DNA of 64,000 nt from Gammaproteobacteria bacterium (GTDB lineage: Bacteria; Pseudomonadota; Gammaproteobacteria; Steroidobacterales; Foliamicaceae), in contig VXYS01000010.1 of assembly GCA_009845905.1 (NCBI GenBank), positions 94,321 through 158,320 on the forward strand, read 5' to 3'. Both the position numbers and the translations under genes were made by a program. This document shows positions 4,217 to 53,030 of the stretch, piece by piece (positions within the stretch are counted from its first letter, which is position 1; every line of letters starts with the position of its first letter). Under the pieces are notes generated by a model. It was not told where the DNA came from. It was given only the letters and a program-made list of their open reading frames with translations, and did not search any database.

Positions 4217-5056
4217 CTACCAGGGTAGAACCCGACCGTCGACATTGATCGGCAGTCCGGGATCTTCAAGTGTAGCGTCGGCGATGATTTCCGCCATCCC
4301 GGCCGCGCTTTCTTCCGTCGTGAGCGCCTCTCCGGTGTAGCCGGATTCCCTCAGCAGCCGGGTATCGACCATGCCGGGCGAAATCAGCAGCACGGCAACG
4401 CCACGCGGCTGCAGGTCGGTGCGCAAGGCCCGCCAGCCCATGTTCAGCGCCGACTTGCTCATGCGATAAAAATACAAGCCCCGCATACGGCCCATCAGCG
4501 TCAGCGAAGCGACGCCGCTGGTAATCGCGACGATTTTCCCTCCGGCGGCGGCGACATTGTCCGCGAGCGCCTCCGACAGGCGTAGCGGAGCGTAGACGTT
4601 CACGGCCATGGTCTGCTCGAACCGGTCGTAGTCCAGTCCGCCCAGGCTTTGTTCGGGCAGGGGACCAAGAACTGCCGCATTGTTGATCAGCAGGTCGATG
4701 GGCTGGCCCGCATGGCGATCGGCGAGGGCGCTTATATGGTCCTCCCGGGTCACATCCAGCTGCTCGACGCTCAGGTTGGCGTATTCGGCGGCCAGGGCGT
4801 TCAGGTCGTCGGCCCGGTCCGGACTCCGGCAGGTGGCGACAACGTTCCAGCCCTGCTCCGCATACCATTCCGCGAACGCCAGTCCGATTCCGCGATTCGA
4901 GCCGGTAATAACGACGGTCGGCGGAACGCCGTCCGCGGCCTGCGCCTCCTGTTCGGCGGCGGCAGCGGCAGGCAGGCTGAACAGCAGCCCCAGAACCATG
5001 ACCGGCAACGGCGCGGCGGATCCTGCCCGCACCGTCATTCTGCGAAGTCGTTTCAT
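4217..5056 (-). CDS. short-chain dehydrogenase/reductase (SDR) with N-terminal signal/anchor segment
   Basis: ATG at 5056 has RBS GGGAGGA. Hydrophobic N-terminus (PLPVMVLGLLFSLPAAAAA), then Rossmann motif VVITGSNRGIGLA, NNAA and YRMSK (YxxxK). Paralog of 27476-28270. Confidence 0.8.
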   Translation of the reverse strand: MKRLRRMTVRAGSAAPLPVMVLGLLFSLPAAAAAEQEAQAADGVPPTVVITGSNRGIGLAFAEWYAEQGWNVVATCRSPDRADDLNALAAEYANLSVEQLDVTREDHISALADRHAGQPIDLLINNAAVLGPLPEQSLGGLDYDRFEQTMAVNVYAPLRLSEALADNVAAAGGKIVAITSGVASLTLMGRMRGLYFYRMSKSALNMGWRALRTDLQPRGVAVLLISPGMVDTRLLRESGYTGEALTTEESAAGMAEIIADATLEDPGLPINVDGRVLPW

Positions 5057-5196
5057 GCGCAATCCTCCCTGAGCGCATTGTAAGCCAAGCCAGCGTAGGG
5101 TCATCCCGGCAGTTTGAGGCTAAACTTGCCCATTCCGCCGGGCCGGGAGCATACGGCCGGCGGCATTTGACGGGAGTTTCCAAGGGAGTCTTCACA

Positions 5197-6444
5197 GTGG
5201 CGCAAACCAAGAGCACGAGCGCGACCGCGGCGCAACCCAGCTACATTCCGACACGCGAGGAACTGGTACTTGAGGCACGCAAGCTGGTGCCGGTACTCCG
5301 CGAGCGCGCCCAGGCTACCGACGAGCTTCGTACGCTGCCCGACGAAACCGTGGCCGATCTGAAGGCGGCCGGAATCCACAAGATTTTCACGCCCCGGCGC
5401 TACGGCGGATTCGAGATGGACTGGGGCGCGCACGTGGACGTGTCCCGCGAACTCGGTCGCGGCTGCGGTTCCACGTCATGGGTGTCGTCCGTGGTGATGT
5501 CCCACACCTGGATACTCGGGCGCTTTCCGGTGCGTGCGCAGGAGGAATTCTGGCCGGACAGGCCCGATGCGATCATCGCGACCGCCTTTGCCGGCGGCGG
5601 AACGATGGAGCCGGTGGACGGCGGCTTCGTGCTGAACGGCCAGTGGCGTTTCGCCAGCGGCGTGGACCACGCGAACTGCGCCGTCGTGGGGGGGCGCTAC
5701 AACATCAAGAATCGCACTTCCGAGGGCAGGTTGAGATACCGCATGGCGCACCTGTTGCCGGAAGATTATGAGATCGTCGACACCTGGCATGCGGAGGGGC
5801 TGAAGGGCACCGGAAGCAAGGACATACTGGTCAAGGACCGTTTCGTGCCGGAGTACCGGACCGTGCGATCGGAGGAGCTGGCCGGCAAGGAACCCCCGGG
5901 AGCGAAGCTGCACGAGAGCTATATCTATCGCACCGAACTCGGACAGCTTTTCTATACGCTGCTGTGCGGGCCGATGCTGGGGGCTACCCGCGGCGGCCTG
6001 GAACACTACCTGGAACAGACCCGGGAACGCACGGGACAGATGTTCGGCGAGAGCATCGTCGAGCAGGTCCCCGTGCAGATCCGGGTCGCGGAATCCTTCG
6101 AGGAACTGCGGGTAGCCGACCTGATCACCGACAACCTGATGCAGTTCCTGCACGAGGCCGGCAGTTCGGGCAAGCGGATTCGCGGTATCGATCGCCTGCG
6201 CATCCGCCGGGAACCGGCCATGGCGGCCAAGCTCTGCCTGAGCGCCATCACCCGGGTGGCCAACATGATGGGCGTGACCGGGCAGACCGGCAACAACGCC
6301 GTCCAGCGCCATTACCGCGACATGCGCACGATCTCGACCCATGGCGGCCTCAACTGGGACACCGGAATGATGCCCACGGGCAAGCTGCTGCTGGGCGTGC
6401 CCACCGGCGACCCGCTCACCGACGTGGATATCGAAAAGCCCTGA
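5197..6444 (+). CDS. acyl-CoA-dehydrogenase-fold flavin-dependent monooxygenase, oxygenase component (HsaA/HpaB-C2-like, group D)
   Basis: By-eye similarity to M. tuberculosis HsaA: RAQATDELRTLPDETV, CGSTSWVSS, AQEEFWPD, GLKGTGSKDILVKDRFVP. The GTG at 5197 (RBS AAGGGA) is preferred over the TTG at 5167. Confidence 0.8.
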   Translation: MAQTKSTSATAAQPSYIPTREELVLEARKLVPVLRERAQATDELRTLPDETVADLKAAGIHKIFTPRRYGGFEMDWGAHVDVSRELGRGCGSTSWVSSVVMSHTWILGRFPVRAQEEFWPDRPDAIIATAFAGGGTMEPVDGGFVLNGQWRFASGVDHANCAVVGGRYNIKNRTSEGRLRYRMAHLLPEDYEIVDTWHAEGLKGTGSKDILVKDRFVPEYRTVRSEELAGKEPPGAKLHESYIYRTELGQLFYTLLCGPMLGATRGGLEHYLEQTRERTGQMFGESIVEQVPVQIRVAESFEELRVADLITDNLMQFLHEAGSSGKRIRGIDRLRIRREPAMAAKLCLSAITRVANMMGVTGQTGNNAVQRHYRDMRTISTHGGLNWDTGMMPTGKLLLGVPTGDPLTDVDIEKP

Positions 6445-7798: not shown

Positions 7799-7891
7799 CT
7801 TTGTGTGCCTCCCTCTTTCGGGAGGCGCCATCCCTGGCTTGGTTTCGCCATCCCTGGCTTCAACACTCCCGCAAGAGGGAGGCACACAAAG
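7799..7891. repeat. family-1 structured intergenic repeat, copy A
   Basis: Perfect 19-nt terminal inverted repeat CTTTGTGTGCCTCCCTCTT / AAGAGGGAGGCACACAAAG. Inner clamp CGGGAG...CTCCCG. The core carries CGCCATCCCTGGCTT twice (7826-7840, 7846-7860). Lies between convergent genes. Confidence 0.85.
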
Positions 7892-7915
7892 GGGCTATCG
7901 TGGCAGCATCCTGCG

Positions 7916-9130
7916 TTAGAGGGAGTAGCTGTCGACCAGCGCGCCTGCGACCGAACGGCCGCCGTCGAGGCGGAGCCAGCAATCGGCGGCCGCGAGAGCG
8001 CCGGCCTGGCCGGGGCGTTGGGGGTGCACCAGCTTCAGCGCTCCCGTTTCGCTTTCGCGGCGGGCCAGCAGGAAGTGTGTGTGGCCTTCGCGCAGGTCGC
8101 AGGGATGCGCGAGCGGCATGCGCAGGGGTTGTTCGGCATCCATCGCCAGGATTGCGCGAATGCCGGGCCAGACCAGGAAACGCATGCCCGCGGCGGTGGC
8201 CAGCGGATTGCCGGGAAGACCGAATACCGGGGTCCCGTCGTCCAGCAGCGCCAACAGGGCCGGCTTGCCGGGCCGCATGGCGACGCCGTGAAAAACGATC
8301 CGGGCTCCCAGTTCCCGCAGCGCTCCCCGCAGGACATCGTGCCTCCCCGCCGAAGCGGACCCACTCGAGACCAGGACCCGGGCGCCGGACTCCCGCGCCT
8401 GTTGAAATTCCCGCGCCAGTTTTTCGGGATCATCCGCAACATGACGCGCTGTCGTCACGGATATTCCCCGTTCCGCGCACCAGGCGGCAAGCCACGACGC
8501 ATTGACGTTGGCTATCTCGCCGGGAGCAAGCGCGGCGCCGGGAGGGCGCACTTCGTCGCCCGTCGTCAGCAGGCCCAGCGGAGGCGGCCTGCGCACGTGC
8601 AATTCGCCGATTCCGGCGGCGGACAAGAGCGCGACATGCCCGGCGTGAAGGCGCTCGCCGGTGAAATCGAAAGCGGCGCCGGCCGGATACTCCTCGCCTT
8701 CAATGCGCAGGTTGCGTCCCTTCTCGACAGGCCCGGAAAAACGCAAAACAGTCGCGCCGCGCCGCTCGACCACCATCGCCTGCTCCAATGGCACGACCGT
8801 GTCCAGCGGGGGCGGCGTCAGAGCGCCCGTGGCGACCCGAAAGGCGCACCCGGAGCCGGGTTTACCGGCCTGTGCGTACGCACCGACCTTCAGCTCGCCG
8901 GCAACGGGAAGCTCCACCGGGGAATCCCCCGCGGCGCCAACCGTGTCGTCGGCGCATATGGCGAAGCCGTCCATGGCGGCGTTGCTGAACGCCGGCGAGG
9001 CGATAGCGCCGATGGCGGGCCGGGACGCCACCGCGCCAAGGGCCTGGCGGGCGGGAACCGGTTCGTCCCGCCACGGCGTACAGGCCGCGGCCACGGCGGC
9101 GGATGCCTCGCGATAGGGAATCAATTTCAT
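7916..9130 (-). CDS. moeA: molybdopterin molybdenumtransferase MoeA
   Basis: 404-aa ORF. The N-terminal pattern (ASPAFSNAAMDGFAI) and the length are typical of MoeA. Confidence 0.8.
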   Translation of the reverse strand: MKLIPYREASAAVAAACTPWRDEPVPARQALGAVASRPAIGAIASPAFSNAAMDGFAICADDTVGAAGDSPVELPVAGELKVGAYAQAGKPGSGCAFRVATGALTPPPLDTVVPLEQAMVVERRGATVLRFSGPVEKGRNLRIEGEEYPAGAAFDFTGERLHAGHVALLSAAGIGELHVRRPPPLGLLTTGDEVRPPGAALAPGEIANVNASWLAAWCAERGISVTTARHVADDPEKLAREFQQARESGARVLVSSGSASAGRHDVLRGALRELGARIVFHGVAMRPGKPALLALLDDGTPVFGLPGNPLATAAGMRFLVWPGIRAILAMDAEQPLRMPLAHPCDLREGHTHFLLARRESETGALKLVHPQRPGQAGALAAADCWLRLDGGRSVAGALVDSYSL

Positions 9131-9215
9131 TCAACAGCCGGAGCAATGGATTTGAGCCTTTTCGTTATACTCCAACTCAAACGCGAAGTCAGCGGGGGTG
9201 GCGGCGCCATTTCGC

Positions 9216-12200
9216 ATGAAAGACCGGATCATCGATTTATCGCTTGAACGTCGGCGGTCCACGCTGCTGGCGATGATCGGCATCGTGATTTTCGGGATCG
9301 TCGCGCGCGTTTCGATCCCGGTGGAGAGCGAACCCCGCATCGAAATCCCGTTCTACGTGATCACGGTCGTTCACGAGGGCATCTCTCCGGAAGATGCCAG
9401 GCGGCTGCTGATCCTGCCGCTGGAAATCGAACTCAAGGCCGTGGAAGGCGTCCGGGAAATCACCGGCACGGGCGCCGAGAACATGGCCATGGTGGGGGTG
9501 GAGTTCCAGACGGGAATCGACCTCGACGTAGCGCTGAGCGACGTGCGCGAGGCCGTGAACCGGGCCAAGCCCGAGTTCCCGTCCACGACGGAGGAGCCGA
9601 TTGTCGAGGAAACCGCGACCACCGACTACCCCGTGCTGCAGATCAACCTGGTAGGCCGGAACACCCCGGAGGAAACGCTCTACGCCGCAGCGCGCCGCCT
9701 TCGCGACCGGATCGAAATGGTAGGCCAGGTGCAGCTGGCGGCACTGCAGGGACACCGCGAGGAGTTCATGGAAATCCTCATCCGGCCGGAGCAGCTCGCG
9801 ACGTACCAGATGTCCGTGGAGGAGCTGTACGGGGCGCTCACGCGCAACAACCGGCTGATTGCGGCGGGCGCGATGGATTCCGCCCAGGGGAGCGTCTCGG
9901 TAAAGGTGCCCAGCGTCATCGAATCCACCGACGACCTGCTCGACATTCCGGTGCGCATCGAAGGCGACACGGTCGTGACCCTGAGTGACGTGGCTTCGGT
10001 GAGGCGCACGTTCAAGGACCGGGCCAGCTACTCCCATGCCAACGGCGAGCGTTCCATATCTGTGTTCGTCTACCGGCGCTCCGGCGCAAACAGCATCGAA
10101 ACGGCCACCGCGGTCCGTGAAGTGGCGGACGGTTTCCGCGATCGACTGCCCGTGGGCGTCAACATGTTCTATTCCCAGGACACGTCGCAGTTCGCCGCCA
10201 AGCAGATCGTCGAGCTGCAGGGGAACATCGTGACCGCGCTGGTGCTGGTCATGCTCGTGATATTCCCGGCCATGGGCCTGAGGAGCAGCCTGCTGGTGGC
10301 CGGCGCCATCCCGGTCTCCTTCCTTTTCGCGCTGATCTTCCTGTGGCTGTTCGGCCACTCGTTCAACTTCATGGTCATGTTCGGCATGCTGCTGGGGCTG
10401 GGCATGCTGATCGACGGCGCCATCGTGGTCACCGAGGATGCCGAACGGCGAATCACGGAAGGCGAAACCGAACTCGAGGCATACGGGGCGGCCGCCAAGC
10501 GAATGTTCCTGCCCGTGCTGGCCTCCACCGCGACCACTCTGGCGGCCTTCGTGCCGCTGATGTTCTGGCCCGGCGTGGCCGGCGCCTTCATGGGGTACCT
10601 TCCCATTACCCTGCTCTGGGTGCTGATCGGAGCGCTGCTCTATGCGTTGATATTCGCTCCGGTCCTAGGCACGACGTTCCGGCGCCGCAGCCGCGGGATT
10701 GCCGCGCCGCAGGCGGGCGCGGACAGCATGTGGGAACTGGACTGGGCGCGGCTGGGGCGTTTCGCGAGCGGTTACGGCCGCCTGCTGTCGCTGGCCGTGC
10801 GCCGTCCCCTGGCCACCGTCACCATCGTGATCGCGCTGGTCCTGGGCATATTCACGGTGCATGGCTCGCGCGATCTGGGCGTGCTTTTCTTCAACGAGAA
10901 CGACCCCACCTACGCCCAGGTGTTCGTGCGCGCACGGGGCAACCTGGACGTGGAGGAAGCCTACCGGCTGGTTGCCGAGGTGGAGGCAGCGGTCCTGGAG
11001 GTCCCGGGCATCAAGAACCTGAACATGTTCACCACGACCGGCGCGGGCCAGGCCCAGGGGCAGCGGATGCAGTACCAGGGCGGTTCGAGCGCAGACCGCA
11101 TCGGCGCCATGTTCGTCGAGATGGTCGAGAGCAGCCAGCGCGACACGACCGGCATGGAAGTCCTGGAGGAAGTCCGCCGGCGCACGCAGAGGTTCGGCGG
11201 CGTGATCATCGAGGTGCGGCCGTTCGAGAGCCAGATCACCGCCGGCAAACCGATCGCGCTGCAGTTCTCTTCCAACGAGCGTGAGCGTCTTGTTCCCGTG
11301 GTCGAAAGGGTGCGCGAGTACATCGTCAACGAGGTCGAGGGACTGAGGGACATCGAGGACACGCTTCCCGTGCCCGGCATCGAATGGCAGCTGGAAGTGG
11401 ACAGGGCCGTGGCGGGCCTCTACGGCGCCGATGTCTCGACCGTGGGGCTGGCCACGCAACTGGTGACGAACGGCGCCAAGCTGGGCGAGTACCGTCCCGA
11501 CGACGCGGACGACGCGCTGGACATCAGGATCCGCTACCCGACCGAAGACCGCGGCGTCAACGAACTCGACGACCTGAGGATCGTCACCCGCAACGGGCCG
11601 GTCCCATTGTCGAATTTCGTCACGCGGCGCGCGACGCCCCGGCTGGACACTATCCAGCGGGCCGACCAGGAAGACATCCACATGATCCGGGCCGGCGTGG
11701 CGCCCGGCGTGCTGCCCGACGCCAAGATCCGCGAGATTCAATCCTGGCTGGACAGCCAGACCTTCGATTCGGAGGTGGACGTCCGCTTCCGCGGCACGAC
11801 CGAGGAGCAGGAGGAGTCGATCGACTTTCTTTCCAAGGCCTTTTCCTTTGCATTGCTGCTCATGTTCGCGTTGCTGGTCACGCAGTTCAACAACATTTAC
11901 CAGAGCTTCCTGATCATGCTGGCGATCGTGCTGTCCACGGCCGGGGTGTTTCTGGGGCTTGTCATCACCAACCAGCCGTTCAGCGCGATATTGAGCGGGG
12001 TGGGCGTGGTGTCGCTGGCGGGCATTGTCGTGAACAACAACATTGTGCTGATCGACACCTACAACGTGGGGCGCAGGGAATTCCCCGACCGGGACATCGC
12101 CGAACTCATCGTGCTGACCGGATTGCAGCGGTTGCGGCCGGTGCTGCTGACCACCGTCACCACCGTGATCGGACTGCTGCCCCTGGCCAGCCACCAATCG

Positions 12201-12455
12201 GTGGATTTCATCAACCGCAAGTGGGTATCGGGAGGCGAGCTTTCGGGTTACTGGGTGCCTCTAGCCCAGGCCGTGGTGTCCGGACTGACCTTCGCCACGA
12301 TCCTGACGCTGATCCTGACGCCGGCGCTGCTGGTGCTGCCGAGCCGGCTCAAGGGGATGTTCTCGGGTGTTCTGACCGGACTGCGCAACAGGGCGCCGAA
12401 GCCGGTGCGGCTTCGCGGCGGGGACAGTTACGCGAACCGCTCTCCCGGCGTATGA
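9216..12455 (+). CDS. RND efflux transporter permease (AcrB/ACR_tran family)
   Basis: About 1080 aa with two 6-TM bundles and large periplasmic loops. AcrB-like N-terminus (IDLSLERRRSTLLAMIGIVIFGI). ATG at 9216; an alternative GTG lies at 9198. Confidence 0.9.
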   Translation: MKDRIIDLSLERRRSTLLAMIGIVIFGIVARVSIPVESEPRIEIPFYVITVVHEGISPEDARRLLILPLEIELKAVEGVREITGTGAENMAMVGVEFQTGIDLDVALSDVREAVNRAKPEFPSTTEEPIVEETATTDYPVLQINLVGRNTPEETLYAAARRLRDRIEMVGQVQLAALQGHREEFMEILIRPEQLATYQMSVEELYGALTRNNRLIAAGAMDSAQGSVSVKVPSVIESTDDLLDIPVRIEGDTVVTLSDVASVRRTFKDRASYSHANGERSISVFVYRRSGANSIETATAVREVADGFRDRLPVGVNMFYSQDTSQFAAKQIVELQGNIVTALVLVMLVIFPAMGLRSSLLVAGAIPVSFLFALIFLWLFGHSFNFMVMFGMLLGLGMLIDGAIVVTEDAERRITEGETELEAYGAAAKRMFLPVLASTATTLAAFVPLMFWPGVAGAFMGYLPITLLWVLIGALLYALIFAPVLGTTFRRRSRGIAAPQAGADSMWELDWARLGRFASGYGRLLSLAVRRPLATVTIVIALVLGIFTVHGSRDLGVLFFNENDPTYAQVFVRARGNLDVEEAYRLVAEVEAAVLEVPGIKNLNMFTTTGAGQAQGQRMQYQGGSSADRIGAMFVEMVESSQRDTTGMEVLEEVRRRTQRFGGVIIEVRPFESQITAGKPIALQFSSNERERLVPVVERVREYIVNEVEGLRDIEDTLPVPGIEWQLEVDRAVAGLYGADVSTVGLATQLVTNGAKLGEYRPDDADDALDIRIRYPTEDRGVNELDDLRIVTRNGPVPLSNFVTRRATPRLDTIQRADQEDIHMIRAGVAPGVLPDAKIREIQSWLDSQTFDSEVDVRFRGTTEEQEESIDFLSKAFSFALLLMFALLVTQFNNIYQSFLIMLAIVLSTAGVFLGLVITNQPFSAILSGVGVVSLAGIVVNNNIVLIDTYNVGRREFPDRDIAELIVLTGLQRLRPVLLTTVTTVIGLLPLASHQSVDFINRKWVSGGELSGYWVPLAQAVVSGLTFATILTLILTPALLVLPSRLKGMFSGVLTGLRNRAPKPVRLRGGDSYANRSPGV

Positions 12456-12500
12456 TTGACCCGTGTCTTATGGGCAACTGATTCGACTGCGGGGGTAGTT

Positions 12501-14498
12501 GTGAGATTAGCCGAAGAGTTGGCGCTGGTTCTTCTGAACGAAGACAGCGGCTATTTTGAACCCGTCGGCGCCTGGAACCTGTCCTGCGTGATCGCGGGCT
12601 CGGTGCTCGCGGACCTGTCGCTCGAATTCCGTATCGACACCGATACGGAGACGCTGACGCTTCTGGATGCGAAGGAAACAGGCGACCCCTTGCTGGATCC
12701 GGTGCTGGAAGAAATCGCCTCGGCGCCCCCTCCGGTGCACAACGCCCAGTACTGGATCGAGAAGACCGCGCAACGATCGGACGACGCGATGGACATCATT
12801 CTCGACCGGCTGGTCGAGAAGAACATTCTGGATCACGACTCGGGCGGGTTCTGGTCGCTCAGCCGCCAGGTATCGCGCACCGGAACGTACTCCGCGGACG
12901 ACGGATCGACGAAGCTGCAGGTCAAGACGCGAGTTCTTCGCGCAATCCTGGACGAAGAGATTCCCGATCCCCGGGATGTGATCCTCATCAGCCTGATTGC
13001 CGCATGCGACGCCCTGCCGCTGCTGCTCACCGAAGAAGAGTACGAGGAATCCCGCGAGCGCATCGATCTGCTCTGCAGGATGGACCTGGTGGGACGCGCC
13101 ATCGGCGCGGCTGTCAGGGAGAGTCAGGGACGCCCGGTACAGCAGCCCGTAGGGCGCACACGGCCGATTCCGGTCGCCAACCTGCTGAAGCTGATTCCGA
13201 ATCGAAACCTGAGGCGGGGCAATCTTTCAAGGATCCTGACGGATCTGTACAGGGAATACGGTCCGGTCTTCAGGATCAAGAAGCCCTTCTCGGAAAAGGG
13301 CGTTGTCGTGCTTGCCGGACCGGACACCAACGCATGGATCAACCGCAACGGCCGGACCTATTTCCGCACGCGAGACCACATGGCCGACTTCGAGCAACTG
13401 TACGGTGCGTCGCGGACCTTGCCCGGCATGGACGGCACAGAGCATTACCGCATGAGGAAGTCCCTGCGAGCCGGTTATTCCCGCGCGACGCTGGAGGCCA
13501 GGCTGGACGAAGTATATAAATTCTGCCGTGCGTCACTGGAGAAATGGGTCCCGGGCAAACCGATGCCAGGCGCCGCCGCATGCCAGGAGTTGATGAGCGT
13601 TCAGGTGTCGCAGCTCATGGTGGGCGTGGACGCGTCGGACCATATCGACGATCTCCTCAGCTACGAACACCGCTCGCTGGTCACGCATGTGCAGAAAGCC
13701 TTGCCGAAATTCATGATGCAGACGCCAGGCATGGCCAGGAAGAGGAAGCGCATTTTCGAGATGCTCAACCGGGTATTGAATGCGCACACGCCGGCGCAGC
13801 GCAAAGGCAAACCCAAGGACCTGGTCGATCATATTCTGAGCCTGCACGCCAGCGATCCGCAGTATTTCCCGGAGACCGATCTGAGCTTCATGCTGGTCGC
13901 GGGTTTCATCGCCAGCATTTACCTCGGCAGCGGGCTGAGCTTTGCCGTGTACGGCATGGCCAGCCATCCCGAAATCTACCGCCGGGTTCAGAAGGAAGCC
14001 GAGGCGCTGTTCGCCAACGGCGACCCGGGCAAGGACGATTTCACGAGATCCACAATCGACGTCGCCCACCGGGTGTTCCTGGAGTCCCAGCGACTGTACC
14101 CGGTCATTCCGATGCAGCTTCGCACCACGATGAATCACTGCGTGGTGCAGGGCTACAACATACCGAAGGACACGCGCGTGGTGTTCGCGCACACCGCCGC
14201 GCACCACCTGGAAGAGACTTTTCCCGATCCCACCAGATTCGATATCGACCGGTACGCGCCGCCCCGGGATGAGCACAAGCGCGCGGGAGCCTACGTGCCG
14301 TTCGGGCTGGGGACGCATCATTGCCTGGGGTCGAAATGGGTGGAACTGCAAATGACGATCAACCTGCTCCTCATCGCCTACTATTTCGACATCAGCGTCG
14401 TTCCGTCGGACTACGAGATGAGATTCAATCCGTTTCCCACCAGCGCCCCGAACAGCAAGTTTCGATTTACCATTGACAAGAGGCGTCACGACTTCTGA
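12501..14498 (+). CDS. GOLPH3/GPP34-like domain fused to cytochrome P450
   Basis: The N-terminal 225 aa or so match the bacterial GPP34 pattern (LAEELALVLLNEDSG, GDPLLDPVLEEIA, LVEKNILD, PDPRDVILISLIAACDAL). The C-terminal part is a P450 with ExxR (ESQRLYP), PDPTRFDIDRY and heme loop FGLGTHHCLGSKW. GTG at 12501 is preferred; the ORF is open from 12456. Confidence 0.85.
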   Translation: MRLAEELALVLLNEDSGYFEPVGAWNLSCVIAGSVLADLSLEFRIDTDTETLTLLDAKETGDPLLDPVLEEIASAPPPVHNAQYWIEKTAQRSDDAMDIILDRLVEKNILDHDSGGFWSLSRQVSRTGTYSADDGSTKLQVKTRVLRAILDEEIPDPRDVILISLIAACDALPLLLTEEEYEESRERIDLLCRMDLVGRAIGAAVRESQGRPVQQPVGRTRPIPVANLLKLIPNRNLRRGNLSRILTDLYREYGPVFRIKKPFSEKGVVVLAGPDTNAWINRNGRTYFRTRDHMADFEQLYGASRTLPGMDGTEHYRMRKSLRAGYSRATLEARLDEVYKFCRASLEKWVPGKPMPGAAACQELMSVQVSQLMVGVDASDHIDDLLSYEHRSLVTHVQKALPKFMMQTPGMARKRKRIFEMLNRVLNAHTPAQRKGKPKDLVDHILSLHASDPQYFPETDLSFMLVAGFIASIYLGSGLSFAVYGMASHPEIYRRVQKEAEALFANGDPGKDDFTRSTIDVAHRVFLESQRLYPVIPMQLRTTMNHCVVQGYNIPKDTRVVFAHTAAHHLEETFPDPTRFDIDRYAPPRDEHKRAGAYVPFGLGTHHCLGSKWVELQMTINLLLIAYYFDISVVPSDYEMRFNPFPTSAPNSKFRFTIDKRRHDF

Positions 14499-14532
14499 CC
14501 CGCGGGCCACGGTTTACACGGAATCTGCATAA

Positions 14533-15618
14533 ATGAAAATCAGGGAATCCCTGCGCAAACCATTGTGGGCCGGGCTGGTCCTTGCAGTTTGCGCCGTATG
14601 GCTGCTGTCCGGAATCCTGGGAGGCGACGACGACGATGGGCAGGCGTCGGTCGCTTCGCGCGCGGAAGCGCGGGACGAAATCGTCGTGCGGGTACGAACC
14701 AGCCGTGCGTCGGAGCAATCCAGGACGCTCACGTTGCGCGGCCGCACGCGAACCCGGCACGCGGTGACGGTGCGCGCCGAAACGTCCGGCCGCGTGGACG
14801 ACCGGCCGATCGATATCGGCGCGCAGGTGTCGGCAGGCGATGTGCTTTGCCAGGTGGAGGTCAATGATCGCGAACTGCGCGTTCGCGAGGCCGGCGACGC
14901 GGTCGAGCTGGCGACGCTGGAGTACGAAGGCATGAAGACCCTGCGCGAACGGGGCCTTCAGCAGGAGATCGCGGTGGCCCGTGCCAAGGCCCAGTTGAGT
15001 TCCGCGCGCCGCCAGCTCCTGGCCAGCGAACTGGAACTTGACAATACCGCCGTGGTTGCTCCGTTCGCCGGGTTCGTGGAAGAAACTCATGCGGAGGTGG
15101 GCGACTACCTGCAGATGGGCAGCCCCTGCGCCACCATTCTCGATCTCGATCCGATCTACGTGGAGGCCGCCGTCACGGAACAGCAGTATCCGCAACTGGA
15201 CCTGGGCGCCGAGGTGCGGATCACGATGGCCACCGGCAATACGGCCCGCGGATCGCTTACCTTTATCGGCAAGCAGTCGGCGGACCAGTCACGCACCTAT
15301 CCCATCGAAGTGACGGTCCCAAACCCGGACTTTTCGATTTCCTCGGGGTTGAGCGCGGAGGTCGAAGTCTCGCTGCATGCCCAGCCGGCGCACAAGGTGG
15401 GAATGTCCTACGTGGTTCTGGACGCCAACGGAGAAATGGGCGTGCGGGCGGTTGACGACGATCAGCGGGTTCTCTTCTACCCGATCGACGTGGTCCGGGA
15501 AGACCCGGACGGGCTGTGGGTCTCCGGATTGCCGGCCGAAGTCACGTTGATCACGGTGGGCCAGGAATTCGTCAGTCCCGGCCAGCAGGTCAGAGTCCAG
15601 CGCGACACCGCAACATAG
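14533..15618 (+). CDS. RND efflux periplasmic adaptor (membrane fusion protein, HlyD family)
   Basis: 361 aa. N-terminal TM anchor, lipoyl/coiled-coil pattern (AETSGRV, QVSAGDVLCQVE, NTAVVAPFAGFV). Confidence 0.85.
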   Translation: MKIRESLRKPLWAGLVLAVCAVWLLSGILGGDDDDGQASVASRAEARDEIVVRVRTSRASEQSRTLTLRGRTRTRHAVTVRAETSGRVDDRPIDIGAQVSAGDVLCQVEVNDRELRVREAGDAVELATLEYEGMKTLRERGLQQEIAVARAKAQLSSARRQLLASELELDNTAVVAPFAGFVEETHAEVGDYLQMGSPCATILDLDPIYVEAAVTEQQYPQLDLGAEVRITMATGNTARGSLTFIGKQSADQSRTYPIEVTVPNPDFSISSGLSAEVEVSLHAQPAHKVGMSYVVLDANGEMGVRAVDDDQRVLFYPIDVVREDPDGLWVSGLPAEVTLITVGQEFVSPGQQVRVQRDTAT

Positions 15619-15639
15619 CCCTCCCGCCGCCGCGCGGCT

Positions 15640-16671
15640 TCACGCCGGTTTGCGCGCCAGAAAACAGTAAAGCGGCGTGAATATCCCGGTCTTGCCGCCT
15701 GCAACATAAGCGTCCGCGGTCCGGTCCATGAGCCGGATCACGGTGTTGGAACCCTTCGGGAAGAGTCCGAAACCCTCCGTGAGCTTCACCATGCCGATCA
15801 TTGCCTTTCGACCCGCAGGCGTCCTGCGCAGGAGATTCCGGAATGTGCCGGTGTTTCCCTCCATCGGCTGATACCAGGGGGTGTATGGATCTTCCTGCAT
15901 CGCCCTGTCCATCCCCTCGATCACTTCGAACCCGACCGCCTCCAGTGCCTGATCGACCTCCGCGAAGGTTGCGATCTCATTCAATGCGATCCCGTGCATC
16001 AGTTCGCGCCTGATGGCCCGGTGGCGGGAGCTGTTCGAGTCGAACTCTTTCGTCATGCACATTTCCTGCCCCCAGAAAAACGCCCCGGGCTTCAACACGC
16101 GGAAGATCTCGGCAAAAGCGCCCTTCTTGTCCGGCGCGTGGCAGGTGGACTCGATCGCGTAGCCCGCGTCGAATGAGTCGGGCTCGAACCTGCTCATGTC
16201 CATGAAGCTGCAGTGGGCGTAGTCGGCCATGTGATCAAGACCTGCCTCAACGTTCCTTCGCTTCGCCTTTTCCAGTTGCTGCTCGTTGTTGTTGAGGCAG
16301 ACCACGCGGGCGCCGGACTCGCGCGCGACCCGGCGCATTGGCCCCCCGACCCCGCAGCCCACGTCGATGACCGTCATTCCCTCCGTCAGCCGGAGCTTGC
16401 CGATCATCAGCCGCTGATGCCGAAGGATCGAGTCGTCAAGGCTTTCGCCCGGCCTCAAGGGGGCGAAGTGCAGCGATTCGTTCCACCCGAACTGCATGAA
16501 CTCGCTGCACAGCGAGTAGTAGTCGTTGACCGTCTCGGCGTGGTCATATTTGCGGTCGTTGGAGCCCCCTTCTTCCCGCCGGTCGAGCCAGCCTTCAAAC
16601 GATTCGACGCGATTGGCAACGGACCAGCCGCGGTAGGCGCTCTTCAGCGACGTGGACAATTTCGCCAGCAT
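15640..16671 (-). CDS. sterol C-24 methyltransferase-like SAM-dependent methyltransferase (Erg6/SMT family)
   Basis: 343 aa, alignable by eye to yeast Erg6 over the full length: YYSLCSEFMQFGWNESLHFAP, VIDVGCGVGGP, LNNNEQQLEKAK, YAIESTCHAP, VLKPGAFF, PWYQP, and the C-terminal GGKTGIFTPLYCFLARKP (sterol-MT C-terminal domain). Confidence 0.85.
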   Translation of the reverse strand: MLAKLSTSLKSAYRGWSVANRVESFEGWLDRREEGGSNDRKYDHAETVNDYYSLCSEFMQFGWNESLHFAPLRPGESLDDSILRHQRLMIGKLRLTEGMTVIDVGCGVGGPMRRVARESGARVVCLNNNEQQLEKAKRRNVEAGLDHMADYAHCSFMDMSRFEPDSFDAGYAIESTCHAPDKKGAFAEIFRVLKPGAFFWGQEMCMTKEFDSNSSRHRAIRRELMHGIALNEIATFAEVDQALEAVGFEVIEGMDRAMQEDPYTPWYQPMEGNTGTFRNLLRRTPAGRKAMIGMVKLTEGFGLFPKGSNTVIRLMDRTADAYVAGGKTGIFTPLYCFLARKPA

Positions 16672-16716
16672 GGCGTGCGGGATTCCCTGGGGGTGGTGTT
16701 ATGCCGCCGAGAGGGA

Positions 16717-17796
16717 TCAGGCGCCGAACTTGGCGCCGCGCGCGGCATGAATCGGGGCAGGCTTGAGGCTGCGCACACGCGCGCGGCTCTCTTCGGCATC
16801 CGGATAGAACTGCTCGCAGTATTTCCGGTAGGTCATGATCTCGCCGTCCGAGCGGCTCAGGATCGGCAGCGGCTGGTAGCGCTTGTTTTCCCAGATGGCG
16901 ACGTCCTGGCGCACATCGTGCTTGACCCGAGATACGAAGAACCGGGTCAGCCAGTTCGCGGGAAGACAGCGAAGCAGTAATGTCGCCAGCCATTTCTGCC
17001 CGGATTCCCAGCGCCGGATCTGCAGGGCGACCACGAGCTTGATGTAGGTGTCGTCAATGGGCGTGGACAGGATCCACTGGCGCAGTTTCAATCCGCTGAC
17101 GCGCTCATGAAACTCGACGAACGAATAGCCGAAACCCCAGACGTGAGTCGTTGCAACAACGTCGGTCAGAACCGGCACGCCAAGCAGCTTCACGTTGCGC
17201 CGGAAAACGAAGCTGTTGCGCAGGCAGGCGCCGTCCACCTGCACGTCTCCGACCTGCTTGACCGCCGCGTAGCCATGCACGTAGCGGAAATGGGCGATGT
17301 CCACGGAGTTCTCCGAGGTTTCCTGCGGGTGGCCGCGCAACTGCACGCTTCCGTAATGGAGGCGGTGCCATTCCCTGTCCGGCCACTCGGGGAGCTCCCA
17401 CTGCGGACCGCGCCCCACCGGGCTCCACCAGGCGAGAATGAGGCCGTTGAGCTCGCGTGTCTCGTAAACATTGAGCCGCGCGGTTCTGGGCGGCGGGGCA
17501 TCCGGCGTGGCCACGCACCTGCCGGTGGCATCATATTCGAAGCCGTGGAAGGGGCAGACCAGCCGCCCGTTTCTGACGCAGCCGCCGCCGTCCGGCCCCA
17601 GGTGCCCGCCCAGATGCGGGCAGTAGGCCTCGGACACGCAAATCTCTCCGTCGTTGTCGCGCCAGGTCACGATCTGCCGGCCCATCCATTCTTTCTGGAG
17701 AAGACCGCCTTTGGGCAGGTTCCTGGCGATCTCCACGAGATACCAGCCTTCCGGGTACCTGCCCGGCGGGTAATACCGCTTGTTCGCCAGTTTCAT
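16717..17796 (-). CDS. Rieske [2Fe-2S] non-heme iron oxygenase, KshA/Neverland-like
   Basis: 359 aa. Rieske motif CPHLGGH...CPFHGF. Mononuclear iron motif ENSVDIAHFRYVH. C-terminal DVAIWENKRY...DGEIMTYRKYCEQFY resembles the KshA/Neverland tail. Confidence 0.85.
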   Translation of the reverse strand: MKLANKRYYPPGRYPEGWYLVEIARNLPKGGLLQKEWMGRQIVTWRDNDGEICVSEAYCPHLGGHLGPDGGGCVRNGRLVCPFHGFEYDATGRCVATPDAPPPRTARLNVYETRELNGLILAWWSPVGRGPQWELPEWPDREWHRLHYGSVQLRGHPQETSENSVDIAHFRYVHGYAAVKQVGDVQVDGACLRNSFVFRRNVKLLGVPVLTDVVATTHVWGFGYSFVEFHERVSGLKLRQWILSTPIDDTYIKLVVALQIRRWESGQKWLATLLLRCLPANWLTRFFVSRVKHDVRQDVAIWENKRYQPLPILSRSDGEIMTYRKYCEQFYPDAEESRARVRSLKPAPIHAARGAKFGA

Positions 17797-17934
17797 TCAA
17801 AGCCCCCGCTTGTTGACCAGCTCACCGTATATTTCAGCTTGTTTGGCCAAGCATACAGGAACATGAGCGGGAAGGAGGGCAAGACGCCTTAACTGCATGC
17901 CGTTGGCGGACATGCCGCGCAGGACATGCGCCCG

Positions 17935-17995
17935 CTTCCCGGTACTGCGAGGGAGGGCGGCGGGACGCCGCGAGGGACACGCCCTCCCTCGGGAG
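17935..17995. repeat. family-2 intergenic hairpin repeat
   Basis: Perfect 12-nt inverted repeat CGAGGGAGGGCG (17948-17959) / CGCCCTCCCTCG (17980-17991), enclosing the nested hairpin GCGGCG-GGA-CGCCGC. Located 3' of the TonB-dependent receptor gene. Confidence 0.75.
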
Positions 17996-18000
17996 CAGGA

Positions 18001-20472
18001 TCAGAAGCCGTAGGTAAGCGTTACGCCGACCTGGCGACCGCGGGGCAGCGTGATGGCGAAGCCGCGCGGTGTGCTGGACGGATTGCCCAGTTCGCCGGGG
18101 ACATAGCCGGGGATGCTGGCGTGGGGGCGCAAACCGCCGGAGCGCCGGTCGATGTAGCGCAGGATGTCGAGCGGAGTGTCGTCATCGAACAGGTTCTTGC
18201 CCCACAGGGCGATTTCCAGGTTGTCGCGGCGAACACCCAATCGCAAGCCAACCCGGGTGAGCGCACCGGTTTCGATCAGATTGTGGATTTGCGAAAAGCG
18301 CGAGCCTTCGTAAACAACGTCACCGGTGAAAAACCAGGCAAAGCCACTCGCCATGACGTCGCCGCTGTAGCGCGCCACCAGGGAGGCCATGTGCTCGGGT
18401 ATCCGCGGCACTCTCTTGCCGGCCACCGAGCCAAGGCGGTTCAGGTCGCTGCGCGAGCCGTTGGCGCCGTTAAGGTCCGCCTGATCGATATTGACGTATT
18501 CCTGAATCTCCGCGTTGGTCCAGGCATAGCCGACATTCACGACCAGTTTGTCGGTCAGCGCCGTCTGAAGATCGACCTCCAGGCCGGCAACGCGGGTCTC
18601 GCCCACATTGTCGAGCAGCGACGCGCTGCCCCCGGTGGGCGTCTCGATCACGGTCGTGAACTGCTGGTCGGTCACTTCAGTCAGATAGGCGGCCACATTG
18701 AGCGCCGTCCTGCCGTCCATCAGCACCGTCTTGTAGCCCGCTTCGTAGTTCCAGGCCACTTCTTCCTCCACCGCGCGGAAGGATTCATCGGGGTTGCCGT
18801 CCACGCCGATCGGTACCTGGGTGTTGAAGTCGCCGGGCTTGGAACCCTTGGCGATATTCAGATACAGATTCGCGTTCTCGTTCGCCTTGTAGCTCAGCGT
18901 GAATCTTGGATTGACGGAATCGAACTCGGATTCGAACCGGCCGCGAAGCGGCGTCCCGCCGGGTTCATAAACGGAAAGCGTTATTTCATCGGTGGCGGCG
19001 CGCGCCTCCGCCGTGGCGGTCCACTTGTCGCTCAGATCCCATTCGAGGGCAGCGAAAACGGCCGTGTTGGTGACGTCGTCATAGTCGATGGTGGAGTTGG
19101 GCGACACTGCCCTGGCCACCAGGCCCCAGCCGTACCGGTCGCTCAGCGCCGCGGCCACGTCGGTCATCACCTTGTCGTCGCGGCTTTCGTGTTGCTCGCC
19201 ACGATAGTAGTACAGGCCGATGGTGGCCCGGAATTCGCGGTCCGACGGAGACGAAAGCCGGAGCTCCTGGGAGAAGTCGGACTGGTCGTTGCCAAGTATG
19301 CGATTGAACTGGCCGCAGAACCCCGCGGCGCAAGCGAACCCTCTGCCCAGGATAGGACGCAGGAAAGGCGGCAGGCCGTTCACGAAGGCAACTCCGAAAT
19401 CGTAGCCGCCGTAGGTTCCGTCAAGGCCCGTTTCGGACTCGTCGTCGATCAGGCCGGTGAGGCTGGACACTCGCCAATCGTTGGCCAGGTCGTAGTGCAT
19501 GGTCAGCGAAGCGGTAATCCGATCCATGCGGTTGCCCGCGCCGCTGTCGGAATCAAGCTCCGCGGTATTCAGGGCCACCGGCAGATTGCGCAGGGCTTCG
19601 CCAATGTAGTACTCGCGCGCCCTCGGGCCGGTCACGCCGGTAATGTTCGCGCTTCCGGAAGACTCGCCGCGAAAGCAGCAGTTATTGTGCTCGCGGGCTT
19701 GCAGGGCAAGGGCCGGGTGGCTGTCGTCCACCTTCTGGTAGGACAGCGCCAACGTGGCCTCGAACCGCTCGTTGGGCGTGAAGTACAGCTTGCCGGATAT
19801 GTTGGTGGTCTTTTGCTCGTTGACTTCATCCCCGGTGAGCGTGTTGACGTGCTCGCCGCCGTACTGGTCGTAGCCCGCCCCAATCCGGAACCAGGCGGTA
19901 TCCTCAACCAGAGGGCCGCTGATCCAGCCCTGCACCTCATAGGACTCGTGTTCGCCGCCGCCCACCGTGATTTCGCCTTCCAGCTCTTCCGAAGGCCGCC
20001 GGGTGACGTAGTTGATGGCGCCGGCGTAGGTGCCCCGCCCGTATTGCGCGGATTGCGGGCCCTTGATGATTTCGACGCGCTCGATGTTGGCGAAATCGAC
20101 GGACGAAACCTTGCCGCCCACATAGATGCCGTCCACAAAGGTGGACACCGCCTTCACGTTGGCAATGCCATTGATGATCGTGGTTTGTCCGCGCATGGCC
20201 GGCCGGTCCTGGTTGGAGCTGCGCCCGAAACCGGACTGGAACGAGAAGCCCGGGGTGTAGAGCGCGATTTCGTTAACGGATCTGATGCCCAGTTCGCGGA
20301 TGTCGTTTGCGGTGAAGGCGCTGACCGCGATCGGGATGTCCTGCACGGACTCCTCGCGCTTGCGGGCGGTCACGATGATTTCCTCGAGCATGGCTTCCTG
20401 CGTAACCGCAGGACGCGGGGCGACGATCACGCCCGCAGCCAGGACGCAAATTACGGCAAGTCTGAATCTCAT
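18001..20472 (-). CDS. TonB-dependent receptor
   Basis: 823 aa. Signal peptide, plug motif EEIIVTARKREESVQDIPIAVSA, C-terminal beta-barrel ending TLTYGF. RBS GGGAGGA. Confidence 0.9.
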   Translation of the reverse strand: MRFRLAVICVLAAGVIVAPRPAVTQEAMLEEIIVTARKREESVQDIPIAVSAFTANDIRELGIRSVNEIALYTPGFSFQSGFGRSSNQDRPAMRGQTTIINGIANVKAVSTFVDGIYVGGKVSSVDFANIERVEIIKGPQSAQYGRGTYAGAINYVTRRPSEELEGEITVGGGEHESYEVQGWISGPLVEDTAWFRIGAGYDQYGGEHVNTLTGDEVNEQKTTNISGKLYFTPNERFEATLALSYQKVDDSHPALALQAREHNNCCFRGESSGSANITGVTGPRAREYYIGEALRNLPVALNTAELDSDSGAGNRMDRITASLTMHYDLANDWRVSSLTGLIDDESETGLDGTYGGYDFGVAFVNGLPPFLRPILGRGFACAAGFCGQFNRILGNDQSDFSQELRLSSPSDREFRATIGLYYYRGEQHESRDDKVMTDVAAALSDRYGWGLVARAVSPNSTIDYDDVTNTAVFAALEWDLSDKWTATAEARAATDEITLSVYEPGGTPLRGRFESEFDSVNPRFTLSYKANENANLYLNIAKGSKPGDFNTQVPIGVDGNPDESFRAVEEEVAWNYEAGYKTVLMDGRTALNVAAYLTEVTDQQFTTVIETPTGGSASLLDNVGETRVAGLEVDLQTALTDKLVVNVGYAWTNAEIQEYVNIDQADLNGANGSRSDLNRLGSVAGKRVPRIPEHMASLVARYSGDVMASGFAWFFTGDVVYEGSRFSQIHNLIETGALTRVGLRLGVRRDNLEIALWGKNLFDDDTPLDILRYIDRRSGGLRPHASIPGYVPGELGNPSSTPRGFAITLPRGRQVGVTLTYGF

Positions 20473-27475: not shown

Positions 27476-28270
27476 TCAGAAGGGCTGCGGTTCGCCGTTG
27501 TAGCGGATGAACGTGCCGGAATCCTCCGGCGTCAGGTTCTCGATCACGTCGATCATGCCGGCAATGCTCTCGGGCGGCTCGAGAAAACCCTTGAGTCCCA
27601 TCCGATCGACCATCTCGGCCACTTTTTCCACCTTGACGGTGCCGGGCGACAGCAACGCGACGGTTACGCCCTTGCGTTTCGAGTCGGCGGCGACCCCCAC
27701 CATCATCATGTTCAGCGCGGCCTTGCTCGAGCGATACCAGTAGATTCCGCCTTTTCCGCCGGAATCGCCCTCAAAGGAACCGGCCAGCGAACTGACGGCA
27801 ACGATCTTCTTCTGGTCGCTGGCCTCCACGTTGTCCATGAAAGCCTCGCTGACCTTGAGCGCGCCCAGCGCATTGGTGCGGAAGAAGTGGACCGCCATGT
27901 CATAGTCCAGCGTCCCCAGCGTCTGGGGCCGCGGCTTGGTGAAATCGCCCGTTATGCCGGCGTTATTGATGAGCACGTCGATCGGCATGCCGGCCAGCTT
28001 CTCCGCCAGCGCGTCGATGCTGGAGTGGTCGGTCACGTCCAGCTTTTCCGCGCGAACGGCGGGGTACTGCTCCTCGAGCGCCGCCAGGGTATCGGGGGTC
28101 GTGTCGCGGCGGTGGGTGGCGATGACGGTCCATCCCCGATCCGCGTACTGCTTGGCGAATTCCAGTCCAATACCGCGGTTGGAACCGGTAACGAGCACTG
28201 TCTGCGCCTGTACGGCGGACATCAGTACAAAAGAGGCCAGCAGGCCCGCGGCGATTGTGGCGTTGCGCAT
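27476..28270 (-). CDS. SDR with N-terminal signal/anchor segment (paralog of 4217-5056)
   Basis: 264 aa. MRNATIAAGLLASFVLMSAVQA is followed directly by QTVLVTGSNRGIGLEF. Also NNAGI and YRSSKAAL. Confidence 0.85.
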   Translation of the reverse strand: MRNATIAAGLLASFVLMSAVQAQTVLVTGSNRGIGLEFAKQYADRGWTVIATHRRDTTPDTLAALEEQYPAVRAEKLDVTDHSSIDALAEKLAGMPIDVLINNAGITGDFTKPRPQTLGTLDYDMAVHFFRTNALGALKVSEAFMDNVEASDQKKIVAVSSLAGSFEGDSGGKGGIYWYRSSKAALNMMMVGVAADSKRKGVTVALLSPGTVKVEKVAEMVDRMGLKGFLEPPESIAGMIDVIENLTPEDSGTFIRYNGEPQPF

Positions 28271-28368
28271 GGATAGTTCCCGCAGTACATCAGAGCGCGC
28301 ATTGTATCCCTCGGGAAAGCGACCGATGCGCTCCGAAACGCATCGGCGCGCGCATACAATTCCGGCGG

Positions 28369-29538: not shown

Positions 29539-29569
29539 ACTAATTGCTCTGTAATCCAGGAGCACAATC

Positions 29570-30715: not shown

Positions 30716-30718
30716 CCC

Positions 30719-35963: not shown

Positions 35964-35967
35964 AGCG

Positions 35968-53028: not shown

Positions 53029-53030
53029 CC

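Follow-up and report, generated by a model that had tools for sequence, protein, structure and literature searches.

GPP34 proteins are effectors of phosphatidylinositol 4-phosphate (PI4P) in eukaryotes, and the PI4P pocket of GOLPH3 is formed by W81, R90, R171, and R174 (PMC2806290). In bacteria, the combination of a GPP34 domain with a cytochrome P450 has been described as GPP34_L; it accounts for 656 of 663 long forms, which were reported exclusively for sponge symbionts of many phyla (Microbiome 2025;13:4, PMC11706023). That study proposed a role for GPP34 proteins as secreted effectors that bind PI4P and prevent the maturation of phagosomes, and it also reported rare fusions of GPP34 with Rieske proteins and with ABC-transporter ATPases; it makes no mention of sterols, of a neighborhood with sterol methyltransferase (SMT), Rieske, and RND (resistance-nodulation-division) genes, of the PI4P-pocket residues, or of the I-helix (PMC11706023). 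Sponge symbionts also carry OSC-CYP51-ERG24(-SdmAB) clusters (OSC, oxidosqualene cyclase) that are flanked by SMT (Brown et al. 2023, PMC10070321; Kelly et al. 2022, PMC9531527), and the supplement of Brown et al. (2023) lists true ERG11 and sdmA, not the GPP34-P450 fusion (PMC10070321). Here, we analyze a 64,000-nt stretch of contig VXYS01000010.1 from a gammaproteobacterial assembly (the window), which encodes a GPP34-P450 fusion protein between the permease and adaptor genes of an RND pump. The preliminary description of this DNA, made from the sequence alone, had named no earlier description of a GPP34-P450 architecture; the gene is in fact a member of the published GPP34_L class, and the new element is its functional context, in which sterol-type enzymes and transporters recur and which appears to be undescribed. 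Literature searches on GPP34 with sterol and on sponge symbionts with Rieske and P450 returned nothing relevant, and no description of such a gene island was found.

The fusion gene and its parts are located in the window as follows.

12501–14498, forward strand: GPP34-cytochrome P450 fusion gene encoding 665 aa, with start codon GTG at 12501 and stop codon TGA ending at 14498.
12507–13121, forward strand: GPP34 (GOLPH3/Vps74-like) domain, aa 3–207 (Pfam PF05719), with an invariant Trp25 and a hairpin at aa 110–120.
13200–14429, forward strand: cytochrome P450 domain, aa 234–643 (Pfam PF00067).
13911–13928, forward strand: atypical I-helix motif A471-S-I-Y474-L475-G476, which replaces (A/G)Gx(D/E)T(T/S).
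14301–14330, forward strand: haem-ligand loop FGLGTHHCLG (Cys608), corresponding to the P450 signature FxxGxxxCxG.

The frame from 12456 to 14498 on the forward strand is open throughout, with no internal stop, and because the homologues begin at MRLAEE the start was set at GTG 12501 by alignment with 19 of them. All motifs quoted in the preliminary description (LAEELALVLLNEDSG, GDPLLDPVLEEIA, LVEKNILD, EIPDPRDVILISLIAACDALPLLL, ESQR, PDPTRFDIDRY, FGLGTHHCLGSKW, and LVAGFIASIYLG) are present in this frame, and the domain annotation with hidden Markov models that it had suggested placed both domains above the Pfam cut-offs. The N-terminal region is GPP34, as had been supposed, with a full-length match to PF05719 (E 3.7e-33, 115.7 bits against a cut-off of 29.1) that covers 200 of the 201 profile positions (1–200), and it is followed by a complete C-terminal P450 (E 9e-43, 147 bits against a cut-off of 22.8). 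In an alignment of 72 sequences, the ExxR motif (E528/R531) is invariant, as are Cys608, G602, L603, T605, and H606 of the haem-ligand loop. An identical 665-aa protein (P0001) is carried by five independently assembled contigs of an Ircinia ramosa sponge metagenome, and more than 120 clusters (90% identity) with both a GPP34 and a P450 domain have a uniform length of 660–690 aa. The fusion is therefore not the product of a frameshift or an assembly join that would divide it into two genes, an outcome that the preliminary description had allowed for. The ENGE20-1 scaffolds that carry the identical protein are attributed to the Ircinia ramosa study, and thereby to this host, by the naming of the samples. 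The AlphaFold2 model of the protein has a predicted local distance difference test score (pLDDT) of 87 and a predicted template modeling score (pTM) of 0.81, the latter of which points to a defined arrangement of the two domains. An N-terminal signal peptide is absent, as the sequence begins within helix 1 of the GPP34 domain in both translation and model. A truncated public copy (P0015; NCBI protein F4013_06360 from a metagenome-assembled genome [MAG], 507 aa) is 98% identical and annotated "hypothetical protein," and other family members in public records are labeled merely "cytochrome P450."

GOLPH3 (3kn1) matches the fusion with an E value of 0.003 by phmmer and of 6e-16 using the family profile. 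In a profile alignment of 86 fusions, W81 of GOLPH3 corresponds to W25, which is invariant, and R90 corresponds to A32 in the window protein and to Ile or Val in other members; in all 86 fusions R171 corresponds to D/E94 and R174 to M/I97, and a deletion of 10 residues lies ahead of the R171 region. Because R90, R171, and R174 are not kept, PI4P-type binding is unlikely, and the analogy to GOLPH3 that the preliminary description had drawn is weakened as regards the PI4P ligand; with the basic triad replaced in every fusion, a PI4P-type pocket was ruled out on residue conservation. R92, which is conserved near the lost triad, could conceivably act as a substitute basic residue. The projecting β3/β4 hairpin is present in the AlphaFold2 model (strands 110–113 and 117–120), and in the alignments of 72 and 86 sequences its F117 is at least 90% conserved and its W118 is invariant. 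With these features, the domain could dock on the bacterial membrane, or capture lipids from it, independently of PI4P, and the rare Rieske and ABC fusions would fit a GPP34 that serves lipid oxygenases and transporters as an accessory module. Short stand-alone GPP34 ORFs (open reading frames) also occur near fusion genes (L014:16403–16954, 183 aa; L056:5118–5855, 245 aa); they may be fusion remnants or split genes.

The I-helix of the P450 half departs from the canonical pattern. In an HMMER alignment, A471-S472-I473-Y474-L475-G476 is aligned with A-G-H-H-T-S of Methylococcus CYP51, so that Tyr474 occupies the acid position and Leu475 the position of the conserved Thr. The motif A-S-x-Y-L-G(S/D) is kept in all 86 close fusions with an invariant Tyr, and across the sequences compared this odd I-helix is a family signature. 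In a sister subfamily, which includes both fused and stand-alone proteins, the I-helix reads A-G-L-T-x-A-x-T, and both subfamilies have a hydroxyl residue (Tyr or Thr) at the acid position, one before the canonical Thr. The claim of the preliminary description that acid and alcohol are both absent thus stands for the canonical positions but overlooks the hydroxyl of Tyr474 one position earlier; the alcohol function may have been moved instead of lost. Such a motif may allow chemistry that is substrate-assisted, peroxide-driven, or of the isomerase type. Foldseek comparison of the modeled P450 half with CYP51, CYP102, CYP120, and CYP184 gave template modeling (TM) scores of about 0.8 at 14–21% identity. 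An identity as CYP51 was ruled out, because the best match (E 8e-21) covers only aa 413–642 at about 20% identity and ASIYLG stands in place of AGxHTS. No curated family claims the P450, and its best NCBIfam matches, which are far below threshold, are secondary-metabolite terpene oxygenases.

A scan of one genome per species identified more than 480 relatives of the fusion. The neighborhood counts that follow refer to the best 80 loci, all of which are from MAGs; ORFs within ±10 kb were called and clustered, and the cluster representatives were annotated. These loci span at least 11 phyla or classes (Gammaproteobacteria, Acidobacteriota, Rhodothermales, Chloroflexota, Gemmatimonadota, Nitrospirota, Verrucomicrobiota, Latescibacterota, Actinomycetota, Thermodesulfobacteriota, and Alphaproteobacteria), and many carry sponge-project bin names. 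The genes that recur near the fusion are listed below.

KshA-like Rieske oxygenase (Rieske/KshA_C): 55 of 80 loci.
SMT, 60–70% identical to the SMT homologue in the window: 50 of 80 loci.
MMPL/HAE3 transporter with weak sterol-sensing and HpnN/BstA similarity: 43 of 80 loci.
Flavin adenine dinucleotide (FAD) amine-oxidase-like protein: 36 of 80 loci.
AcrB-type RND permease: 24 of 80 loci.
Membrane fusion protein (MFP): 20 of 80 loci.
Outer-membrane factor (OMF): 15 of 80 loci.
Major facilitator superfamily (MFS) transporter: 13 of 80 loci.
LppX_LprAFG lipoprotein: 11 of 80 loci.
ERG4/ERG24 sterol reductase: 7 of 80 loci.

A sterol-type enzyme (SMT, KshA-like Rieske, or ERG4/ERG24) is encoded within 10 kb of the fusion in 71 loci and a transporter of the RND superfamily in 65, and the two occur together in 61. 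The typical layout in diderms is OMF>MFP>RND>fusion>SMT, accompanied by a Rieske gene in the vicinity, and that in Chloroflexota is FADox>(Rieske<)fusion>SMT<MMPL<Rieske<MFS<LprG<. Some loci hold two or three GPP34-P450 paralogues within 20 kb (three in L014; also L004, L012, L060, and L076), which suggests diversified substrate specificity or regiospecificity.

In the window, the genes next to the fusion are the following.

9198–12455, forward strand: AcrB-type RND permease, directly upstream of the fusion (gene callers place the start at about 9216; Pfam ACR_tran, E 2e-150; NCBIfam RND_permease_2).
14533–15618, forward strand: RND periplasmic adaptor (MFP), directly downstream of the fusion (Pfam HlyD_D23/HlyD_3; NCBIfam TIGR01730 RND_mfp, 147.7 bits against 94.9).
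15640–16671, reverse strand: sterol C-24 methyltransferase (SMT) homologue, convergent with the operon (Pfam Methyltransf_11 and Sterol_MT_C).
16717–17796, reverse strand: KshA-like Rieske non-haem-iron oxygenase (Pfam Rieske and KshA_C).
18001–20472, reverse strand: TonB-dependent receptor, located upstream of both the Rieske and the SMT gene (Pfam Plug and TonB_dep_Rec).

Pfam and NCBIfam bear out the permease and adaptor assignments of the preliminary description, and no OMF gene (OEP family) was found among the window ORFs scanned, again as it had noted. The same-strand gaps are 45 nt between permease and fusion and 34 nt between fusion and adaptor; a promoter and terminator scan of 8900–18200 was uninformative, with no terminator in either gap. 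The SMT homologue scores 67 bits with Methyltransf_11 and 64.7 bits with Sterol_MT_C (cut-off 21.7), and its S-adenosylmethionine-binding motif IDVGCGVGGP is intact. The best PDB match of the Rieske oxygenase is KshA (1e-28), with a full-length alignment to KshA 2zyl (2e-26). An identity as SdmA was ruled out for this protein, which reaches 45.5 bits against an NCBIfam cut-off of 600 in the Rieske domain only.

The pump that flanks the fusion in the window differs from that found elsewhere. The window RND is 92% identical to that of locus L081, an 82%-identical relative with the same gene order, but these two permeases are only 24–25% identical to the RND that accompanies the fusion at other loci, and the window adaptor is equally unrelated. 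Elsewhere, the RNDs beside the fusion have a median mutual identity of about 66% (L001, L002, L079, and L089 plus 19 loci; e.g., L079:6739–9933) even though they are found in Gammaproteobacteria, Acidobacteriota, Rhodothermales, and Latescibacterota. It follows from this identity across phyla that a dedicated pump would travel with the fusion, and it indicates horizontal transfer of a pump-plus-enzyme island. The unusual RND operon order pointed out in the preliminary description is thus real in the window and in L081 but not general, because the order elsewhere is OMF>MFP>RND>fusion with a different RND; judged from these loci, RND>fusion>MFP is a lineage-specific arrangement within a different pump operon. 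The RND/MFP pair of the window would then be a second, independent pump association, which strengthens the probable functional link between fusion and pump.

A search with the P450 domain alone against 1.8 billion representatives found many further GPP34-P450 fusions at 27–38% identity as well as stand-alone relatives, for example in Herpetosiphon. We inspected five distant fusions (L086–L090). The fusion in L089 lies directly upstream of an island-type RND with its OMF and MFP, and that in L090 is near genes for a flavin-containing monooxygenase and fragmented RND genes. One or two sulfotransferase genes are located directly downstream of the fusions in L086 (8001–12080) and L088 (7106–11362), and the fusion in L087 (1670–12164) is near genes for synthesis of 3′-phosphoadenosine 5′-phosphosulfate (PAPS), with ATP-sulfurylase, adenosine 5′-phosphosulfate (APS)-kinase, and PAPS-reductase genes in its surroundings. 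The paralogues in L086, L087, L088, and L089 are 31–38% identical, and those in L086, L087, and L088 have an I-helix of the A-G-L-T type. Proximity to RND genes (L089) or to sulfotransferase and PAPS genes is again a putative lipid-tailoring context, and the latter may point to a lipid that is first hydroxylated and then sulfated. Sulfated sterols are known from sponges.

Other genes of the window are mentioned here for completeness. The TonB-dependent receptor has the same arrangement in L082 and falls outside the conserved neighbor clusters of related loci, making it a possible lineage-specific part; a two-component system lies beyond it. Island-type FAD oxidase, MMPL, OMF, LprG, and ERG24 genes are absent from the window. 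Acyl-CoA dehydrogenase and short-chain dehydrogenase/reductase (SDR) genes upstream of the permease (4217–6444) are not conserved across loci. A 480-aa ORF without a Pfam match at 7805–9247 on the forward strand is the shadow of a real MoeA gene at 7916–9130 on the reverse strand. Further away, the forward strand encodes an FAD monooxygenase followed by two tandem paralogous Rieske/VanA_C oxygenases of 381 aa each (28255–31864), and, at 51304–54395, a DUF1800/DUF1501 gene pair, after which come a SnoaL-like protein and another TonB-dependent receptor, the second in the window (55577–58144). Two tandem FGE-sulfatase (formylglycine-generating enzyme-like) genes are located at 35055–36903 on the reverse strand.

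Taken as a whole, this evidence makes it on balance probable, by a modest degree, that the fusion acts on sterols as a membrane-docked tailoring P450, in concert with SMT and a KshA-like oxygenase and with coupling to RND transport. The protein would be a cytoplasmic, peripherally membrane-associated P450 of a gammaproteobacterial sponge symbiont and one enzyme of a horizontally spreading gene island for sterol tailoring and lipid transport. Its GPP34 domain, acting through the conserved Trp pocket and the hydrophobic β-hairpin and not through PI4P recognition, would recruit the haem domain to the cytoplasmic membrane, at its inner face, or hand it a membrane lipid. The P450 would oxidize a sterol or a closely related polycyclic triterpenoid on which the neighboring sterol C-24 methyltransferase and KshA-like Rieske oxygenase would also act, and the adjoining RND pump would move product or substrate across the envelope. 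The architecture and its conservation, the gene neighborhood, the loss of the basic PI4P triad, and the conserved non-canonical I-helix are direct observations; that the protein docks on the membrane, that it uses a sterol, that it is coupled to the pump, and in which direction transport runs are inferences, and we assign no regiochemistry to the P450. The preliminary description had proposed a membrane- or lipid-directed P450 that works with a pump, probably on sterols, and this core is strongly backed by the SMT and Rieske genes that directly follow downstream in the window and that, like genes for RND-superfamily transporters, are found in most loci, but PI4P-type binding is not.

Several observations weigh against such a function. 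The putative membrane binding would have to be achieved by a GPP34 domain without the basic triad. In the window, the SMT and Rieske genes are convergent to the fusion and therefore not co-transcribed with it. Region I of the SMT homologue is divergent (FMQFGWNESLHF; MQFGWNESLHF), and the activity and substrate of this protein are putative; the counterpart in yeast ERG6 is YEYGWGSSFHF. No oxidosqualene cyclase, CYP51, or ERG24 was found among the scanned ORFs of the window, and no ferredoxin or reductase partner is conserved near the fusion in the 80 neighborhoods. The sterol may be made de novo or be taken from the host. A gene neighborhood, moreover, is an association and not the identity of a substrate.

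Three other explanations account for parts of these data. According to the published proposal, the protein would be a secreted eukaryote-like effector that enters the sponge cell, binds phagosomal PI4P through GPP34, and blocks phagolysosome maturation, with an unspecified accessory role for the P450. This agrees with GPP34 being a PI4P effector in eukaryotes (PMC2806290), with the enrichment of the family in sponge symbionts, to which it was reported to be exclusive (PMC11706023), with the origin of all 80 related loci from MAGs, many with sponge-project bin names, and with the invariant Trp25 (W81 of GOLPH3). However, none of the 86 fusions keeps the three basic residues that coordinate PI4P (Ala/Ile/Val, Asp/Glu, and Met/Ile stand in their place), a signal peptide is lacking, and the gene is part of an operon-like array with inner-membrane pump components and lies beside genes for cytoplasmic cofactor-dependent enzymes; together these points argue against a secreted PI4P effector. 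In addition, no secretion-system genes are among the conserved neighbors, and a haem-thiolate enzyme that requires a redox partner would be an unlikely secreted effector. We consider this explanation very improbable.

Xenobiotic defense, in which the P450 oxidizes toxic lipophilic metabolites of sponge or microbes (e.g., terpenoids) in the membrane and the RND pump expels them, would treat the sterol-type neighbors as coincidental or as enzymes of non-sterol terpenoids. The commonest neighbors are sterol-specific (Sterol_MT_C, KshA_C Rieske, and ERG4/ERG24) and not detoxification genes, and the partners in monoderm Chloroflexota, an MMPL/HpnN-like lipid transporter and an LprG-type lipoprotein with an MFS transporter, are handlers of endogenous lipids. 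This explanation therefore seems unlikely to us despite the tight linkage of the fusion to two unrelated kinds of AcrB-type tripartite efflux pump, the terpene oxygenases among the sub-threshold NCBIfam matches of the P450, and the multiple paralogues per locus, such as the three in L014. That the cluster imports host sterol and initiates its degradation as a carbon source, with a CYP125-like P450 and a KshA-like Rieske protein, we regard as having little probability. The biosynthetic-type C-24 methyltransferase is a leading neighbor (50 of 80 loci), and ERG4/ERG24 reductase occurs as well, whereas no KstD, Hsa, FadD, FadE, or Mce4-type genes are among the conserved neighbor clusters. The closest solved relatives of the Rieske protein are indeed 3-ketosteroid 9α-hydroxylases, and a TonB-dependent receptor adjoins the Rieske gene in the window, with acyl-CoA dehydrogenase and SDR genes upstream at 4217–6444, but none of the latter three is conserved across loci.

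A sterol-tailoring role for the membrane-docked fusion can be extended, more tentatively and with a probability that we place below even, to a mobile system for sterol remodeling and export that is specific to sponge symbionts, consists of the GPP34-P450, SMT, KshA-like Rieske oxygenase, and a dedicated RND/MMPL pump, and has spread horizontally across more than ten phyla. If so, host-type sterols, among them unconventional ones that are alkylated, oxidized, or sulfated, would be produced or re-tailored by bacteria and then either inserted into the bacterial envelope or passed on to the host; in GPP34, bacterial oxygenases would have a membrane-docking or lipid-presenting module of a new kind; and the I-helix with Tyr for the acid and Leu for the Thr would serve a non-standard P450 chemistry. 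The oldest claimed animal biomarkers rest on sponge sterols whose side chains are unusual, 24-isopropylcholesterol being one of them, and it is actively debated whether bacteria contribute to these sterols. A neighborhood with SMT, a steroid-type Rieske oxygenase, and lipid pumps yields a concrete set of enzymes with which bacterial sterol tailoring in sponges can be tested, and it calls into question the phagosome-effector model, the only functional hypothesis published so far. It also suggests a way in which a normally soluble bacterial P450 may be directed to membrane lipids.

Compared with known systems, the window protein is structurally no different from GPP34_L, of which it is a member: the architecture of N-terminal GPP34 and C-terminal P450 is identical, and the sponge habitat (Ircinia ramosa metagenome scaffolds) and the multi-phylum distribution resembling horizontal transfer are shared (PMC11706023). 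With eukaryotic GOLPH3 and Vps74 (3kn1 and 2zih) the fusion has in common the full-length Pfam family, the Trp of the pocket (W81 = W25), and a β3/β4 hairpin with hydrophobic residues; unlike them, it has a 10-residue deletion and is without the basic residues R90/R171/R174, and the bacterial domain is fused to an enzyme with no Golgi or glycosyltransferase-tail context. CYP51s, including the Methylococcus CYP51-ferredoxin fusion (6mcw and 7jj1), are the best sequence match of the P450 half among solved structures and resemble it in their eukaryote-like P450 fold class, in having no acidic residue at the acid position (CYP51 has His there, the fusion Tyr), and in the sterol-related context. 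The fusion nevertheless lacks the conserved Thr and AGxHTS, the match is limited to the C-terminal half, and genuine CYP51s of sponge symbionts are located in separate OSC-CYP51-ERG24 clusters.

Among lipid transport systems, HpnN (hopanoids), BstA (Methylococcus sterols), MmpL3, and LprG-Rv1410 are comparable to the Chloroflexota island, which has an MMPL/HAE3 protein with weak similarity to HpnN/BstA and an LppX_LprAFG lipoprotein with an MFS partner. The island scores are all far below the equivalog cut-offs, however, the window instead has an AcrB-type permease with an adaptor, and the known systems include no P450. The de novo sterol clusters (PMC10070321, PMC9531527) share hosts, bacterial phyla, and bacterial SMT homologues with the GPP34-P450 loci. 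They differ in that they hold OSC, true CYP51, ERG24, SdmA, and SdmB, whereas the GPP34-P450 island holds a KshA-like Rieske oxygenase, not SdmA, together with transporters. By its predicted gene content, the GPP34-P450 locus is a distinct tailoring and transport island.

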